A stretch of 63,746 nucleotides of DNA, filler included, from Licmophora abbreviata (taxonomy: Eukaryota), in assembly GCA_900291995.1 (NCBI GenBank). It is 17 parts of 17 records of this genome, joined end to end, with 100 filler letters (N's around TTAATTAATTAA, not from the genome) between each part and the next. Parts side by side here need not be neighbours in the genome. Positions count along the whole stretch, not along the records: positions 32,230 to 37,200 come from OLMU01003734.1; 16 more parts are not named here. One strand, given 5' to 3'. Within the stretch, counting starts at the first letter, position 1. The number at the start of each line of letters is the position of its first letter. A program made the translations under genes and the position numbers. The notes below the pieces were generated by a model. That model did no database searches. It was not told the DNA's origin and saw nothing but the letters and a program-made list of their open reading frames with translations. Below, piece by piece: positions 31,015 to 37,505 of this stretch.

Positions 31015-33027
31015 GGACCTGGGACAGGGTTTACCCATCGCTTCCTGGTCTCCACGACCAGCTCGTCTTTGGGTCTGGACAGCGGCGACGCGTCATCTTT
31101 CGAAGCTAGAACGGTACCGACAGCGTCGCCTGTACTCGATGCGGGACGAGCAAGTGGCGGCTGCGGTGAGATCGGAGCCGCCAATCCGTCATCGTCGTCC
31201 AGCATGTCCAAATCGTCGTCCCAGCCATCTTGAACAATCTCCTCCTCCGCATCTTCATCACTTTGCGCAGGCGACGGTCGCGGCAGACTCATGCGTGCAC
31301 TCGTTCCATCACTGACTGGAGCCCGAGTCGACACTCCCTCTGCGGGAGGAGCCTCTCGCCTGTACAGTTGAAGAGGTTCCTCCCGCGACTGCCCCAACGC
31401 AATTGGCTCGTCTTCTGTCCGATACAGCTGGGGAGCCCGCGGAGCAGACACTGGCTCTTTCATTCCATATAGCACTGGAGCATTATTTTCTGAGTGCCGC
31501 GGTATTTCAGTTCGATACAATGTGGGGGTACTCTCTACTCTCTCCTCGTCCGGCAAAGTAACGGATTGTGCCAACCGACTCCACCCGGATCGCAGCAATC
31601 CGCCCAGAATTGGCACCGGACGAGATTGCCCCTGCTGCAGCTGCGTGGATTGTTCCACCGCACCCGAAGGAGCCGGCATATCAGATTGTTGTTGCGGTGG
31701 TTGGGTTTCACTACTGAGTTCCGAGGCTGCAAGGATCTGATCGGTGGATGGCAAGACACTACGCAAGAATTCGACCTTGTGACTGACGTTGACCACCGCG
31801 TCCATTTGTTGCAATGCCGACGCCATGCCCACATTGGTAGCCTGCACAAACTGTTGCGTGGAGGACAATTTCATCAAAAATGCATCGCGCATACCATCCG
31901 ACGTTTGTCCTTCCTCGTGTTGCGGAAGAAGGTCTTCCACAAGCGGAAGCAAGAAGGTTGCCGTCTCTTGGAGCATCGTTGGACTGACGTCGTCCAATAG
32001 CTCCACTCGTTCCAAGTGATAGCGCAACGACGGTGTATGCGGCGCAAAGTCGACCGTCACGTGCAATTGCGCGACATCGATGCGATCGAGCGTGGAATGG
32101 GGAAGCGACAAGCGCAAGTCGCATGCGCANNNNNNNNNNNNNNNNNNNNNNNNNNNNNNNNNNNNNNNNNNNNTTAATTAATTAANNNNNNNNNNNNNNN
32201 NNNNNNNNNNNNNNNNNNNNNNNNNNNNNCGACAAGCGCAAGTCGCATGCGCAGTGCACTTGCTGCGGCAGAATGGAGAAGCGACAGTGCGTGGCCACGG
32301 CAGTGGCCATGTACTGCGGTCGCACCAAGGCATCGGGTCCCGTCAGTACAGCCAGGACGTCGGCCAAAAGTGACTGGTTGGCACATCGGATCAAGAGCAA
32401 GGCGTCGGGTTGTGTGGTTTGCTCCAGGATACGTTTGACCTTGTCCTTGTCTTGAAGATGGGTGCCGTCGGGGAGTCGAATTTCATAGTCCATGCGATCG
32501 AGTTCCGTGTCGAGCGTGTAGTTGTAGAGGGCAGGTCGGTTGTGGTAGTAGGATGCAAGTTCGAGTGCATGGTGGTAGGTATTGTATTCGGCTTCCAAGA
32601 CGGCGTTCAAGGAGGGTAGCAGGAGGGGGAGAGAGTGCATGTAGCTCTGCAAGGTCTGAAAGAGTTGTAGTTCTTGGTCATTTAGGGGCTCTGCGCTGCT
32701 CATTCTGGACGTGTCTAGTACATCAATGTCGTCGTCGTCAAAGTCCCAGTCATCTTTGGTCGCAGCGACATCACTAGGAGCTTCCTTTTTACTGTCGTTG
32801 CTGTGGCTGGCGTCATCCTTGTCGGTCCTTGAGGGATGCTCTGTGGATGGCGCCGCTTCTGTCGAGGCTTTGAAACTTTCGTCGTCAAAATCCAAATCCT
32901 CGTCCCAGCCATCGTCTAGCGACATGGCGGAGGAAGACTGTGGTGGAGTGCTCGGCAGCGACGGCCACTGTGTGACGATTGACGGCGTGTTGTTCTTGTT
33001 GTTCTTGCTGTTCTTGTGTCTGGCCAT
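31015..33027 (-). CDS. Hypothetical acidic protein split by the linker at 32130-32229, 3' truncated
   Basis: CGACAAGCGCAAGTCGCATGCGCA is duplicated across the gap, giving one continuous frame (CACDLRLSLPH). Contains DDGWDED/DDWDF/DGWDDD motifs. Confidence 0.75.
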
Positions 33028-33266
33028 CTTTCCTTTTTGCTGTTGAGCAGGACGGACGGCCGACCAACTTCAAACTTTGAAACTCCGATGTTCATCACCA
33101 GTAACTCCGAGGAATGAATCTTTCTACACATCTTCTCTACTCAAGCACACGTATGTCCAACTCAGTACAAAATCCCGTAGGAACACGGAAAACTGCACAG
33201 AGCACCAAAATCCACACAACCCCCCAAAATCAAAAAATCAACAGCGGCGAGTGCCTGTCCTGTACC

Positions 33267-35379
33267 ATGACCGTTCTTATGCAGCTCTCCTCAGCCGCCC
33301 TTCTCTTGGGATGCATTCTCACTCAAGTAAATGGCAATGGAAATGCTATTGTTGTGCCGTCCTTTTCGATTTCGGACTTGCAAACGGGCCGTCGCGGACA
33401 AGACCTGACTCGAGCGCTCACCACCACGGGCCTAATTGCCGTAACGCTTGACCCACAACACGACGGAAATTCATCATCTTCCCTCAAACTGAACCGTCAT
33501 GTCGCACTCGAAGGTCTCTGTCACTGTCGTCATCATCTCGAAGCATTGGCGTCAACACAACTAGAAGAAACTTCCATGGAAACTACGACTCTGGGCGATG
33601 GACAGACGACGCGTACCACACTCGCAACGGCCACCGTCGGAACCACGCCCCTGCCCCTCTTTGACCATGCTCCCCTTCAGGATGCGTGTGGACCAGACAC
33701 CCTGCAGGCCATGGAAGAGCTGCGGGATCACTTGGCGACGGCCGCGGAAGCCTTCACGCTAGGCCTCGATCGACTCCTACTACGTTCGGAAGGACCAGGA
33801 GCTCATCCTCCTATTCTCAAGACTCACCATGGTGTCCGATACTCCTCCGTCCAGGATATTGTCGACGCCTCCACGCATCTCGAACACTTTCATGTCTACA
33901 CCAAGAAGGACAACGACAAAAACATGGATGCTACTACAACACAAGATACTCTTCCGCTCCACACGGATGCGGGACTCTTTCTCGCCTTTGTCCCCGCCCA
34001 CCACTGCGACGACCAACACCACGATCCATCCTTTTTTATCCAACCAGGAAGCAACCCACAGCAGCAAAATAGGCCTGTCGTCTTTCCACCCAATAGCATT
34101 GCCATCATGCTAGGAGCTGGAGCGGAACAGTGGTTGGACACGCCGCAGCTGCCTTTGCGGGCCACCCGGCATGCCGTTCGCATGGAACCTGGCACTGTGC
34201 GAGCCTGGTATGGAATGAGTACGTTGAAAAAATAGTACTTCTTTTATACATTCAATGCGCGTAACATGATAACGACTGACTCGCCATTTTGTCACTCTCC
34301 CTTTTTGTTTTACAGTGCACCTGGTCCCGGAGAGTGCCATCATCCAACACCATCCCAAGGAGCGTACGTTTGGAGACATGAAAAAGTCCATGGCTCTCCT
34401 GTCGTCTGTTGGAAGCAAGGACAACGACGAAACTTCCACTCAAGACGACATTTCCATTGGATGTGGCATGGTCAATGACATGTCAGAGTCATTCGATACC
34501 ATGTCAGTGAAGCCAGCATCTCCTCGTCGCCGTCGCTTGCAGCATGTCCAAGACCCCAGTGCTTGCAACAACAGCACCAACTTCTTTTGCTGGATGCAGT
34601 GCCTTGACATTCCGAATCACCAACAAGCGGTTGGCTACATAACGGAAGGCTATTCCCTGTACTGTCTGGATCCCGCGATCCTCGCCGCCTCGGGCAATCG
34701 AGTCTCCGAGGCGACGGGACCATGCGAGAATGGATCGGTGCACAACGCCAACTGCCTTGGATCGTGGCAGCCGACGGCTCCGGGTCTGTACTCACAGCAA
34801 GTTGACGTGGAAACACCTTCCGTCGAAGAGCAGTTCTGCTACGGAGGCACTTCCATGTACATGGACGGATTCCACTGGTTGGATTCAACCTGCGTCATTC
34901 TTCTCTTTCCCGCATGGGTCTTGTCTTCCGGCGGACGACTTGCGGTCGCATGTCTCGGCATGCTGGCGTTCGGAGTTGCCCTGGAGCTCGTCATCCGTCA
35001 GCGCCGAACGCACATCTCTTCCATGGCGGCGGGCTACAAGCGGTTGATGGCGTCGGGCGTCTCCTATGGCGTCCAACTGACCATGGGATACTTTCTCATG
35101 TTGGCTGTCATGACATACTCCGGGCCACTCTTCTTGTGCTCGGTCTTTGGCCTTGTCTTTGGACATGTCATGTTCAACGCAAGGGATGCCCTCCTTCTGA
35201 GGAAACAAGAGGAAGAAGAAACGACGGAACGAAACAAGTTGGAAGAATCATCTGAGGAGCTGGGAGCCGCCAGGCGTACCACGAGTGCTTGTTGTGGGGA
35301 TTCGGGCTACTCGAAGGTTCGTGCGTCCACCTCCAGCGTCCCGGAAGGAAGCACGCCGTGCTGTCAGCACACTTTGTAG
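33267..35379 (+). CDS. Fusion protein: signal peptide + 2OG-Fe(II)-dioxygenase-like domain + Cys-rich module + Ctr copper transporter
   Basis: Intron 34219-34315 (GTACGT...CAG) gives RAWYGMMHLVP. HTD at 33960 and distal His at 34170; Ctr motifs TSMYMDGF, LLFPAW, GYFLMLAVMTY (MxxxM), GLVFG (GxxxG) and a CC-containing tail. Confidence 0.85.
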
Positions 35380-35620
35380 AATGAATCATCGGATGAGGAC
35401 GAGAGTTGCGAGTACCATTAGTAAACTACTTGGTACACAGTACGGGTAGGAAAAGAAGAATAGACGTTGCATGTTAATAATAACTGTGTAAATCAATAAC
35501 TAAGATTTATCAAATGCATTTCTACCTTGCACAGCTTGCAGCGAGTCACTGTGAGCTACTGGTACGACATGTACGCACAGCTAGTAGAAGTATCAATACG
35601 AAACCAGCTTCCTGATGAAG

Positions 35621-36988
35621 TTATCCGATGAAGGTCGAGACAATCGCGAGCACAGTTGCGCTTAGAATGACAACGCCTGTACTGGGATTCGATGAGGAGC
35701 TGGTGTTGGTGCCGTTGTGGCCTGAAGGATCGTGGGTCCCACTGTGATTGCCATTGGTTTCGGTGGCGTTGGGAGCAACTGTAGCAGTTTCCACGTCGAC
35801 ACATCCAGGGAAGAACTGTGGATCGTGTGCGCCGTTCCAGAGCTGACGTTGGTCATTAATACATGCCAAGTCGAGTCCCTCCGTCTCGCATGAAGCAGCA
35901 GTCACATCCGTGAGATTGAAGCACCGATGCCAGCAGAAGTACTGGGAATCGGCTTCACAGTCGGCTTCCGCCAGGTGACGGGCATGCATAGTGGAGGAGC
36001 AGCCAAGTGCGAGGGAGTCGTCCTTGTTCTCAATCATCTCGTCGCGCAACTGTCCGTAGGTGGAATGGTGGACAGGATGGATTGCATCGCTAGGCGGCAA
36101 TACCATGCGGCCGTACCATACGCGTGGTTCCGTGGTGACTCGTGGCATGAGCAGCGCATGAGGAGGTACGCGGAGGGGTGAAACACCTTGGGACTTGAGG
36201 GCCGGGTTCAAGATCTGATTCACTCCATCTCCGAGGAGAATGATGAGATCGTCTTGGTGTTCAAAGTGGACAGCCTGCTTGGATCCATCCTGGAGCTGGA
36301 TGTAGAATCCGTCGGAAGGCTCGGAGGCGATGAGGCCAGGAGTAAAGACAAGGAAGAGACCTTGATCAATATGCCAATCAATGGTAGTAGTGTCTTTGTT
36401 CTCAGCGTCAGAACCTGTTGGCTGGTAGGAATGGAAGTGTTCCAAGTGTTCCCCGTTGTTCGTGAGCGAAGTGACGTCGAAGTAGTCCTTGTCTTGCTGA
36501 GTGGTCTTGAGGAGCGAATCTTGAAGGCCATGAAGCATTCCTTGGAGAGTTTTAGAAAAGGCGTTCGTCACAGCCTCGACAGTCTTGCGAAAGGCAGGGC
36601 TTGCTTCGTCGAAGGCATGGCACGACGTGGCGGCATGCGAACCGTGGTGGATCTCGAAGATCTCGCCAAGAAGCGAGTGAGTCGCGAGAGTGCGGCGGAG
36701 CGTGCCGTCAGGAAAGGTATGTTCCCCCACAGCAGAGGATTCTTCCATGCACTGGGAAAGAGACTCGAGTGTTTCCAATTTCTGGAAGGAAGGGACGTCG
36801 GTAACACTCAAGATACCAACGCCTTGGAGGGAAGCCAGAATCTGGGCGTCGATTTCTTTTGTTTCGTCCGATTCCAACCCGGGATTTCCCACAAGATTCT
36901 TGTAAGAAATCCTTGTGGGAGTGAAGGAGGCCGAAGCACTCCAAAACGTAGAGAAGATGGCGAACGCGGTGACGAAAGAGACCTTCAT
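35621..36988 (-). CDS. Secreted, probably GPI-anchored paralog of the ectodomain of the neighbouring Ctr fusion
   Basis: Signal peptide MKVSFVTAF, RRTLAT, HLEHFHSY, WHIDQGLFLVF, LGDG, LRVPPHAL, RVWYGRM, RHL, YFCWHRC, then an S/T/N spacer and a hydrophobic C-terminus. Confidence 0.85.
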   Translation of the reverse strand: MKVSFVTAFAIFSTFWSASASFTPTRISYKNLVGNPGLESDETKEIDAQILASLQGVGILSVTDVPSFQKLETLESLSQCMEESSAVGEHTFPDGTLRRTLATHSLLGEIFEIHHGSHAATSCHAFDEASPAFRKTVEAVTNAFSKTLQGMLHGLQDSLLKTTQQDKDYFDVTSLTNNGEHLEHFHSYQPTGSDAENKDTTTIDWHIDQGLFLVFTPGLIASEPSDGFYIQLQDGSKQAVHFEHQDDLIILLGDGVNQILNPALKSQGVSPLRVPPHALLMPRVTTEPRVWYGRMVLPPSDAIHPVHHSTYGQLRDEMIENKDDSLALGCSSTMHARHLAEADCEADSQYFCWHRCFNLTDVTAASCETEGLDLACINDQRQLWNGAHDPQFFPGCVDVETATVAPNATETNGNHSGTHDPSGHNGTNTSSSSNPSTGVVILSATVLAIVSTFIG

Positions 36989-37505
36989 GGTGGATTCTTG
37001 CAACGATCGGAGACTGTGTGAGAAATGTCCCTTGAACTTACGGAGTCGCCGTTCATCTCTACGTAGGATTTGGTACTCGAAAACACGTAGGCAGATTGTG
37101 TGGCCTGTGCAGGATTGGGCCGCAACGCCTGATTCCATCGTGACTCAACTGGAGCTCATGACTCGGGAGTTCTTCATCTCTGTTTCCATCCAAGTCAAAG
37201 NNNNNNNNNNNNNNNNNNNNNNNNNNNNNNNNNNNNNNNNNNNNTTAATTAATTAANNNNNNNNNNNNNNNNNNNNNNNNNNNNNNNNNNNNNNNNNNNN
37301 ACAGTCTCACACACTTGTGCTGTCAGTCATTTGCAATAAACATTTTATTATCATTCAAGACATAATAAAAAGAAATGCAAAGAGTCATCACATAGGCCCA
37401 AAAGGCTCAACTGTTGATGAGCTCACAAAATTGAGTTTCAAAAGTTGCACGAGTTCAGTCCAGTCCTGCAAAACGGTAGCTGCATTGTTGGATCTCAATT
37501 ACAAT

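Follow-up and report, generated by a model that had tools for sequence, protein, structure and literature searches.

Copper limits or co-limits marine phytoplankton. Here, we consider two adjacent genes of Licmophora abbreviata, located at positions 33267–36988 of a 63,746-nucleotide stretch of DNA (the window; assembly GCA_900291995.1); gene 1 joins a predicted secreted domain to a copper channel of the Ctr family, and gene 2 carries the same kind of domain on a hydrophobic tail. Dissolved copper is nearly all organically bound Cu(II), and Ctr channels take only Cu(I) (PMC9502191). In its treatment of marine microalgal copper uptake, the same review describes the N-termini of Ctr proteins as short and rich in Met/His and attributes the reduction of Cu(II) to FRE-type reductases, and its relevant text makes no mention of a folded Ctr ectodomain.

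The initial annotation of this locus stated that no characterised example of such a system was known; however, functional analogues exist in Cryptococcus (Cbi1/Bim1-Ctr1) and Chlamydomonas (CTRA-CTR/CTR3). By analogy, Cbi1/Bim1 is the closest characterised counterpart of the role proposed for gene 2. As described in the relevant part of the source, it is GPI (glycosylphosphatidylinositol)-anchored, LPMO-like, non-redox and copper-binding, interacts with Ctr1 and is induced when copper is limiting (PMC9258870). As predicted for the window proteins, an enzyme-fold, metal-binding, GPI-anchored surface protein is thereby paired with a Ctr channel, and BIM1 domains in fungi are also fused to Ctr. 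In contrast, the LPMO-like (X325) fold of Cbi1/Bim1, with its histidine brace, is unrelated to the window ectodomain, and its role was shown experimentally, whereas that of the window family is predicted from sequence and models.

For Chlamydomonas, Strenkert et al. describe the CTRA-CTR fusions CTR1 and CTR2 and the secreted CTR3 (bioRxiv 10.1101/2023.10.19.563170). As in the window, the accessory ectodomain is found on Ctr proteins and also apart from them, in a secreted paralogue; in contrast, CTRA is a small Cys-Met domain unrelated to the oxygenase fold described below. In its passages on a 'protist cluster' of Ctr proteins, the preprint reports C-terminal HMA domains and an 'unannotated N-terminal domain', represented by Albugo candida, that is also found stand-alone, the Chlamydomonas stand-alone copy (Cre05.g236039) being a CRR1 target. 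The word 'oxygenase' has no occurrence in its text. The C-terminal HMA domain recurs in the dinoflagellate members of the present family, and the preprint's N-terminal domain was compared by description only. This unannotated domain is probably the oxygenase-fold domain of the window, because the architecture, the HMA variants, the stand-alone copies and the nearest ESM Atlas clusters, which are from Oomycota and serve as leads only, agree. Full-text literature searches returned no printed description of an oxygenase-fold domain on a Ctr protein and, for Cre05.g236039, only the Strenkert preprint. The fold assignment appears to be unreported, and the fusion as such has probably been mentioned once, in the preprint. 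Overall, the window case is a Ctr protein with an accessory ectodomain, a known kind of arrangement.

Both genes lie wholly within a single piece of the window (32230–37200):

33267..35379, plus strand: gene 1; ATG at 33267, one intron, TAG at 35377–35379, 671 residues
35621..36988, minus strand: gene 2; single open frame from 36988 to 35624, stop at 35621–35623, 455 residues

These coordinates match those of the initial annotation, which had recognised two convergent, adjacent genes with a common ectodomain. The exon-1 product of gene 1 aligns to gene 2 with 31% identity over 238 residues (BLASTP, E 7e-14), and the Cys-rich stretch of exon 2 also aligns to gene 2 (E 4e-4). All nine of the motif pairs listed there were found in the translations.

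Fold and putative metal site of the common ectodomain

A Pfam scan gave no model matching the ectodomain of either window protein. Sequence-profile searches of the PDB likewise gave no significant oxygenase match, with 9hdl sub-threshold (E 0.0028 and 0.27), and the oxygenase fold was revealed by structure only. An AlphaFold2 model of gene 2, built from a 54-sequence alignment, has a mean pLDDT (predicted local distance difference test) of 81.6, with 276 of 455 residues at 90 or above; its segments of at least three residues below 50 are 1–4, 335–359 and 411–445. The top Foldseek matches of this model in the PDB were only 2-oxoglutarate (2OG)-Fe(II) oxygenases of the IPNS/DOXC class, namely, GA2ox3, T6ODM, deoxypodophyllotoxin synthase, DAOCS, IPNS and ANS (E 1e-13 to 1e-11; 300–370 alignment columns). 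VIA-align superposed 250–276 residues at Z 21–24 and a root-mean-square deviation of 2.7–3.6; the aligned model residues 17–335 span the whole enzyme, N-terminal part included, and ACC oxidase and ethylene-forming enzyme scored Z ~21. Independently, the ESM Atlas gives PF03171/PF14226 clusters at 0.92–0.93, and one gene 2 relative bears the UniRef name 'Fe2OG dioxygenase domain'. Collectively, the model indicates that the common ectodomain is a whole IPNS/DOXC-type double-stranded beta-helix oxygenase fold of ~320 residues, and the dioxygenase fold first proposed from sequence motifs is borne out by the Foldseek search. An LPMO-like X325 ectodomain was also considered and was ruled out by the Foldseek and VIA-align results.

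The residues that may form the metal site are located as follows:

33876..33899, plus strand: gene 1 HLEHFHVY strand (residues 204–211), His cluster and Tyr
33960..33968, plus strand: gene 1 H232-T-D234, predicted first two ligands of a 2-His-1-carboxylate site, invariant
34167..34208, plus strand: gene 1 RHAVRMEPGTVRAW, distal His302, Arg312 ten residues on, and Trp314; H, R and W invariant
36425–36448, minus strand: gene 2 HLEHFHSY, conserved His strand; H184 invariant in 54 sequences
36365–36373, minus strand: gene 2 H206-I-D208, invariant in 54 sequences
36116..36163, minus strand: gene 2 PHALLMPRVTTEPRVW, distal His277, Arg289 and Trp291, invariant in 54 sequences

Conservation was assessed in three alignments, of 54, 42 and 28 sequences, which cover dinoflagellates as well as both diatom clades. 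The H-x-D...H triad, already picked out in the initial annotation, is invariant across all three alignments, as are the Arg and the Trp. The equivalent residues of gene 2 (gene 1) are H206 (H232), D208 (D234), H277 (H302), R289 (R312) and W291 (W314), and the Arg follows the distal His at +12 in gene 2 and at +10 in gene 1. Additionally, most positions of the GEHLEHFHxY strand are invariant or nearly so; for gene 1, L205, E206, H207 and H209 are invariant and Y211 is nearly so in the 28-sequence alignment. In the gene 2 model, H-x-D is located where a strand ends, and two successive strands start with the distal His and the Arg, respectively, which is the layout of the IPNS/DOXC class. The sub-threshold alignment to the solved structure 9hdl places the family's ...LRATRHAV on ...KAVPHFV in the distal-His region. 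Based on these sequence features, the ectodomain is predicted to have a complete 2-His-1-carboxylate metal site, and the conserved Arg/Tyr pair putatively corresponds to the one by which enzymes of the class hold a carboxylate (co)substrate.

Similar to members of the IPNS/DOXC class (GA2ox3 6ku3, T6ODM 5o7y, IPNS 1bk0 and ACO2 5gja), the ectodomain thus combines the whole-enzyme fold with H-x-D...H, an Arg 10–12 residues past the distal His and, on the strand before, a Tyr. In contrast, its identity to solved structures is 9–17%, it has no Pfam match, and it bears an extra invariant His cluster. Moreover, enzymes of the class are known as cytosolic proteins, whereas the window ectodomain is predicted to be secreted, disulfide-bonded and membrane-tethered.

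The Ctr channel and its fusion to the ectodomain

The channel half of gene 1 comprises the following features:

34813..35217, plus strand: gene 1 Ctr domain (residues 484–618), Pfam PF04145 match
34855–34863, plus strand: gene 1 MYM, just ahead of the first hydrophobic segment
35098–35163, plus strand: gene 1 MLAVM-x12-GLVFG sequence motif (MLAVM 35098–35112, GLVFG 35149–35163)
35290..35364, plus strand: gene 1 cytosolic tail with two CC pairs (35290–35295 and 35359–35364)

The exon-2 product matches PF04145 at 49.4 bits (cut-off 25.3), with hydrophobic segments at about residues 510–544 and 561–604. A profile of 42 fused relatives matches the solved CTR1 (PDB 6m97) at E 6.7e-17, the alignment including the MxxxM and GxxxG regions; among these 42 sequences the Ctr Met residues are invariant and the Gly residues nearly invariant, and the CC near the C-terminus is nearly invariant among the fused proteins. 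The described Ctr signature consists of MxxxM-x12-GxxxG within transmembrane segments two and three and a Met motif before the first (PMC9502191). Similar to Ctr/COPT proteins (PF04145; CTR1, PDB 6m97/6m98), gene 1 has MxM before the first transmembrane segment, MxxxM-x12-GxxxG in the second and third, and a Cys-rich cytosolic tail. In contrast, it has a folded ectodomain of ~480 residues (oxygenase fold and Cys-rich module) and not a short Met/His-rich N-terminus. Collectively, the C-terminal half of gene 1 is by sequence a canonical member of the Ctr family, for which transport is predicted, and the full Ctr domain of the initial annotation, with its MxM, MxxxM, GxxxG and CC tail, was located in every motif.

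To place this fusion in the family, the profile of the 42 fused proteins was searched against 1.84 billion cluster representatives, of which 6449 matched at E ≤1e-3, 2540 at E ≤1e-10 and 1077 at E ≤1e-30; the weaker matches are, as expected, partly Ctr-only or HMA-only proteins. The architectures of the best 150 of the 1077 representatives, all below E 1e-93, are distributed as follows:

Full domain and Ctr: 113 of 150, of which 20 also have a GMxCxxC/HMA-like motif
Partial domain and Ctr: 2 of 150
Cys-rich module and Ctr only: 23 of 150, exon-2-like, probably split gene calls
Domain only: 12 of 150

Family members were found in diatoms and dinoflagellates, and the channel fusion is widespread among marine protists. 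Furthermore, 33 of the 34 long relatives of the gene 1 domain contain PF04145; the named sources of gene 1-type proteins are Seminavis (annotated 'mucin 13'), Mayamaea, Epithemia, Amphora and an Odontella transcriptome. For gene 2, 241 relatives were found at E ≤1e-3, and the counts given here refer to the best 120 of the 241. The named ones are from diatoms (Fragilaria, Nitzschia, Seminavis, Fistulifera and Amphora). A Ctr part is present in 4 of the 120 (phmmer), and a simple hydropathy rule finds a hydrophobic end in 65 of the 117 non-Ctr proteins, gene 2 included. Collectively, these sequence surveys support a conserved and recurrent fusion to Ctr, which would tie the domain to copper import.

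The history of the fusion was examined in a tree of 152 domain sequences (LG+G4, quick run, with support from the Shimodaira–Hasegawa-like approximate likelihood-ratio test (SH-aLRT) only; four short rows and the exon-2 piece were excluded). The sequences form two clades, split on a branch with 99% SH-aLRT support. Clade A has 33 rows, 32 with Ctr, and holds gene 1; one of its members (P0151) has a hydrophobic tail in place of Ctr. Clade B has 119 rows, of which 4 have Ctr, in at least two places, and gene 2 falls in a Ctr-free sub-clade of 42 rows. Because the 99% branch separates the clades, genes 1 and 2 are, on the sequence tree, ancient paralogues and no product of recent local duplication. 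In an approximately unbiased (AU) test on a 59-row subset of the tree, with one long branch excluded and the group named after the tree was seen, a single group of all Ctr-bearing rows was rejected (dlnL 442, p-AU 1.4e-44), and the presence of Ctr switches at least 4–5 times on the domain tree. Since the AU test rejects the monophyly of the Ctr-bearing rows, Ctr has been repeatedly gained or lost on this domain.

Other partner domains were observed as well. The divergent member P0157 carries the oxygenase-fold domain, Ctr and HMA, as confirmed by Pfam, and the dinoflagellate-type proteins P0157–P0175 carry the oxygenase-fold domain, Ctr and a C-terminal HMA in one protein, one of them being the Symbiodinium pilosum 'COPT6'. 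An extension with an invariant NGMHG is present in at least 26 proteins, all among the best 120 gene 2 relatives; these are mostly long, tail-anchored forms (e.g., P0075, P0086 and P0094), and some end inside the extension. The extension of a metagenome locus (L004, 1831–2361) matches Pfam DOMON PF03351 over profile positions 3–123 of 124, yet below threshold (E 3.4e-4, 21.2 bits, cut-off 32.7). Its model has a pLDDT of 78.5, compared with 52–72 for the other four models, and Foldseek matches it best to the dopamine beta-hydroxylase DOMON domain and to cellobiose dehydrogenase and pyranose dehydrogenase haem domains (E 0.01–0.1, probability 0.9–1.0). These models give a hint that the DOMON-like extension may serve extracellular electron transfer. 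Finally, in the gene 2 relative P0026, the ectodomain is followed by Hint, a hedgehog-type autoprocessing module (Pfam E 6e-21).

Gene structures, secretion features and surroundings

The remaining features of the two genes are as follows:

33267..34218, plus strand: gene 1 exon 1, encodes the signal peptide and the larger part of the oxygenase-fold ectodomain, from translation
33267–33335, plus strand: gene 1 signal peptide (residues 1–23), N-terminal hydrophobic core; orthologues align from residue 1–2
34219..34315, plus strand: gene 1 intron, 97 nucleotides, GT..AG, splits an ATG codon (Met318)
34316..35379, plus strand: gene 1 exon 2, completes the oxygenase fold and continues with the Cys-rich module, the Ctr channel, a Cys-containing cytosolic tail and the TAG stop
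34456..34839, plus strand: gene 1 Cys-rich module (Cys367 to Cys492), includes FFCWMQC; conserved Cys columns
35380..35620, no strand: 3' intergenic region of the convergent genes, 241 bp from stop to stop, without N run
35624..35800, minus strand: gene 2 Ser/Thr/Asn-rich linker (residues 397–438) and hydrophobic C-terminus
35624–35674, minus strand: gene 2 C-terminal hydrophobic tail, 17 residues, Kyte-Doolittle 2.41, no cytosolic residues
35801..36001, minus strand: gene 2 Cys-rich module (Cys330 to Cys396), includes YFCWHRC; seven nearly invariant Cys
36929–36988, minus strand: gene 2 signal peptide (about residues 1–20), followed by oxygenase fold, Cys-rich module, linker and hydrophobic tail

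The spliced gene 1 reading RAWYGM-M-HLVPESAI corresponds to the conserved RAWYGMMHLVPE.AI. In 12 of 12 Ctr-fused orthologues, three of them transcriptome-derived (P0145, P0153 and P0155), one residue lies exactly between the exon-1 and exon-2 matches (BLASTP), and the same junction reading is present in 9 of the 11 orthologue junction regions displayed. The gene 1 intron is thus strongly backed by homology. Of two short contigs from a sequencing run, the one over this intron is unspliced and probably DNA; they are uninformative on splicing or expression. The 23 representatives with the Cys-rich module and Ctr only (e.g., P0213, P0217 and P0250; 308–474 residues) match the profile from the window intron position onward, and public gene calls probably often split this gene at that position. 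For gene 2, homologues cover 95–100% of the protein.

Both proteins bear hallmarks of secretion. In gene 2, C80/C123 and the seven Cys of residues 330–396 are invariant or nearly so, and the pLDDT of the Cys-rich region is 82–91 at residues 361–410 and low at 335–359. The linker of 42 residues has four NxS/T sites. The conserved Cys, the signal peptides and the NxS/T sites argue that the ectodomain is extracellular or lumenal, and the N-out topology of Ctr agrees with an extracellular ectodomain. By inspection and hydropathy, the gene 2 tail looks like a GPI-type signal, as initially annotated, since a signal peptide, a small-residue linker and a hydrophobic end occur with no cytosolic tail. 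From the signal peptide, the Ctr topology and the tail, we infer a location at the cell surface. The end of the gene 2 signal peptide (36920–36988, minus strand, residues 15–25) reads ...WSASAS-FTPTR, with Phe and Pro conserved in the family consensus, and resembles the diatom plastid-targeting cleavage motif ASAFAP. There is no room for a transit peptide in gene 2 because the folded domain begins at once (pLDDT 97 from residue 21).

The window looks eukaryotic, has a G+C content of ~50% and consists of 17 pieces chained by N44-TTAATTAATTAA-N44 spacers, with 16 junctions across 3062–62501, including 32130–32229 and 37201–37300. Some junctions are flanked by short overlaps, of 24 nucleotides at 32130–32229 and of 12 and 7 nucleotides at others; the 24-nucleotide overlap argues that the left neighbour piece is truly adjacent to 32230–37200, and at the right spacer of this piece no overlap was seen. 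The divergent left neighbour of gene 1 (minus strand, 31017–32129 and 32230–33027) encodes an acidic, low-complexity protein with no Pfam match, which runs across the spacer and repeats the motif DGWD(E/D)DLD in both pieces. Neighbour genes in the window gave no metal-related Pfam families, and tblastn found no further copies of either protein in the whole window beyond these two. The intergenic region 35380–35620 has five GTAC sites in 241 bp, compared with 3.67 per kb window-wide; GTAC is the core of SBP-type copper response elements in green algae.

Candidate roles of the ectodomain

The safest statement is that a secreted, IPNS/DOXC-type, putative metal domain has been repeatedly and durably attached to copper-specific partners and also occurs in tail-anchored forms. 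Beyond this, based on sequence and model, we regard it as an evenly balanced proposition that the ectodomain is a copper-acquisition accessory with a redox step at its metal centre. We infer the location, the bound metal, the catalysis and the hand-off to the pore as follows. The ectodomain would sit at the outer membrane face, in gene 1 as the extracellular N-terminus of a trimeric Ctr Cu(I) channel. Its metal centre would bind Cu(II) or a Cu-ligand complex and would perform or mediate a redox step, in which either copper is reduced to Cu(I) or the organic ligand is removed by oxidation. From there, Cu(I) would move on to MYM and to the selectivity ring that MxxxM forms in the underlying pore. 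The GPI-type gene 2 product may carry out the same chemistry without being wired to the channel, and genes 1 and 2 need not be an obligate pair.

Several observations weigh against a copper-linked redox accessory. In clade B, 115 of 119 rows are without Ctr, and the core job of the domain may not be copper uptake. The site itself is atypical, because the class motif R-x-S, located ~10 residues past the distal His and serving carboxylate binding, keeps an invariant Arg but has an invariant Trp at the Ser position, and because the Pfam 2OG models PF03171/PF14226 match 0 of 54 family members at E ≤10. Moreover, the triad is placed in the pocket from its sequence pattern, from secondary structure and from a single alignment below threshold. 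It is difficult to envisage a labile Fe(II) site and a supply of 2OG in an extracellular setting of oxic, iron-poor seawater. Finally, the DOMON assignment is weak (21.2 versus 32.7 bits; Foldseek E 0.01–0.1).

In its most specific form, the proposal is that an active extracellular non-haem metal enzyme on the Cu(I) channel reduces Cu(II) or oxidatively destroys, directly above the pore, the strong organic ligands to which nearly all seawater copper is bound; its electrons would come from a bound carboxylate or ascorbate-type co-substrate or, in relatives, from a DOMON haem domain. We advance this version tentatively, as a possibility with the balance against it. Chemistry is favoured over mere binding by the conserved Arg/Tyr and the DOMON partner, and binding is favoured over chemistry by the problem of maintaining Fe(II) and 2OG in the extracellular space and by the Cbi1 precedent.

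Binding without chemistry would make the ectodomain a retired enzyme fold, in which the triad and the His cluster serve as a copper site and Cu(II) is bound and released to Ctr in the manner of Cbi1/Bim1. General metal-affinity trends speak for such a shuttle, as Cu(II) should outcompete Fe(II) at an extracellular site of this type. The ectodomains are also rich in histidine, with 21 residues in gene 2 and 26 in gene 1, and share a conserved HLEHFH strand beside the triad; in the relevant part of its description, Cbi1 is itself a GPI-anchored enzyme fold without redox activity that binds copper and interacts with Ctr1 (PMC9258870). However, the Arg and Tyr for a carboxylate (co)substrate are invariant from diatoms to dinoflagellates, and a pure shuttle would need neither, while the DOMON-like partner domain suggests electron transfer. 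We consider a non-catalytic shuttle, the leading alternative, somewhat unlikely.

Alternatively, the complete catalytic residue set could belong to a true oxygenase of the secretory pathway or surface with a substrate unrelated to copper uptake, for instance exported metabolites or constituents of the wall or frustule that it modifies. In that case, Ctr would act as one membrane anchor among several, or as a source or sensor of metal for the enzyme. The Ctr-free majority of clade B agrees with this, as do the interchangeable anchors, which comprise the GPI-type tail, Ctr, DOMON with a tail and one Hint module. In contrast, Ctr is joined in 113 of the best 150 representatives and HMA too in 20, both partners being copper-specific, and the fusion states recur on the tree. 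An oxygenase unconnected with copper is therefore, in our estimation, unlikely.

The initial annotation had gone further and proposed a two-part surface system, in which the dioxygenase-fold domain would capture metal or strip it from organic ligands and pass it to Ctr. Read as an obligate system, gene 2 and gene 1 would be a dedicated pair and their adjacency would reflect co-regulation. The genes are indeed adjacent, convergent and 241 bp apart, both gene types occur in at least Seminavis and Amphora by source name, and the five GTAC sites lie in the common 3' region. However, the genes are deep paralogues and did not arise by local duplication, and convergent genes have no common promoter. 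Near gene-2-type relatives, a second domain copy or a Ctr part was found at 0 of 80 metagenome loci; among the informative loci, with at least 2.5 kb of flank on one side, the count was 0 of 26 (17 distinct groups), and 18 loci had at least 2.5 kb downstream, the side where the partner sits in the window. Among the loci examined, the adjacency of genes 1 and 2 is thus not conserved, and the two-part system loses its main support. An obligate pair now appears quite improbable. The weakest alternative, which places the protein in an internal membrane (vacuole or endosome) as a Ctr2/Ctr6-type exporter whose lumenal oxygenase fold mobilises stored or endocytosed copper, would remove the co-substrate problem, as 2OG, ascorbate and Fe(II) are easier to supply in a lumen, and Ctr proteins are also described in vacuolar membranes (PMC9502191), but it is very improbable given the many GPI-type relatives, whose tails suggest the plasma membrane's outer leaflet.

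For the copper-acquisition accessory that we favour, the significance lies in the surface step that frees and reduces copper, which has been assigned to FRE-type reductases largely by analogy; the present family would be a strong candidate for this step or for an aid to it. If the domain is an active enzyme, it would supply the step, reductive or ligand-releasing, that is missing from the high-affinity copper uptake of diatoms and dinoflagellates and would be the first known oxygenase-fold domain fused to an ion channel. The IPNS/DOXC class would extend to a secreted, membrane-tethered and channel-fused setting. If the domain is only a copper shuttle, it would be the second independent enzyme fold, after the LPMO-like Cbi1/Bim1, to have been recruited to feed a Ctr channel. 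Collectively, these results indicate that the fusion to Ctr may be an undescribed step in the copper uptake of marine protists.

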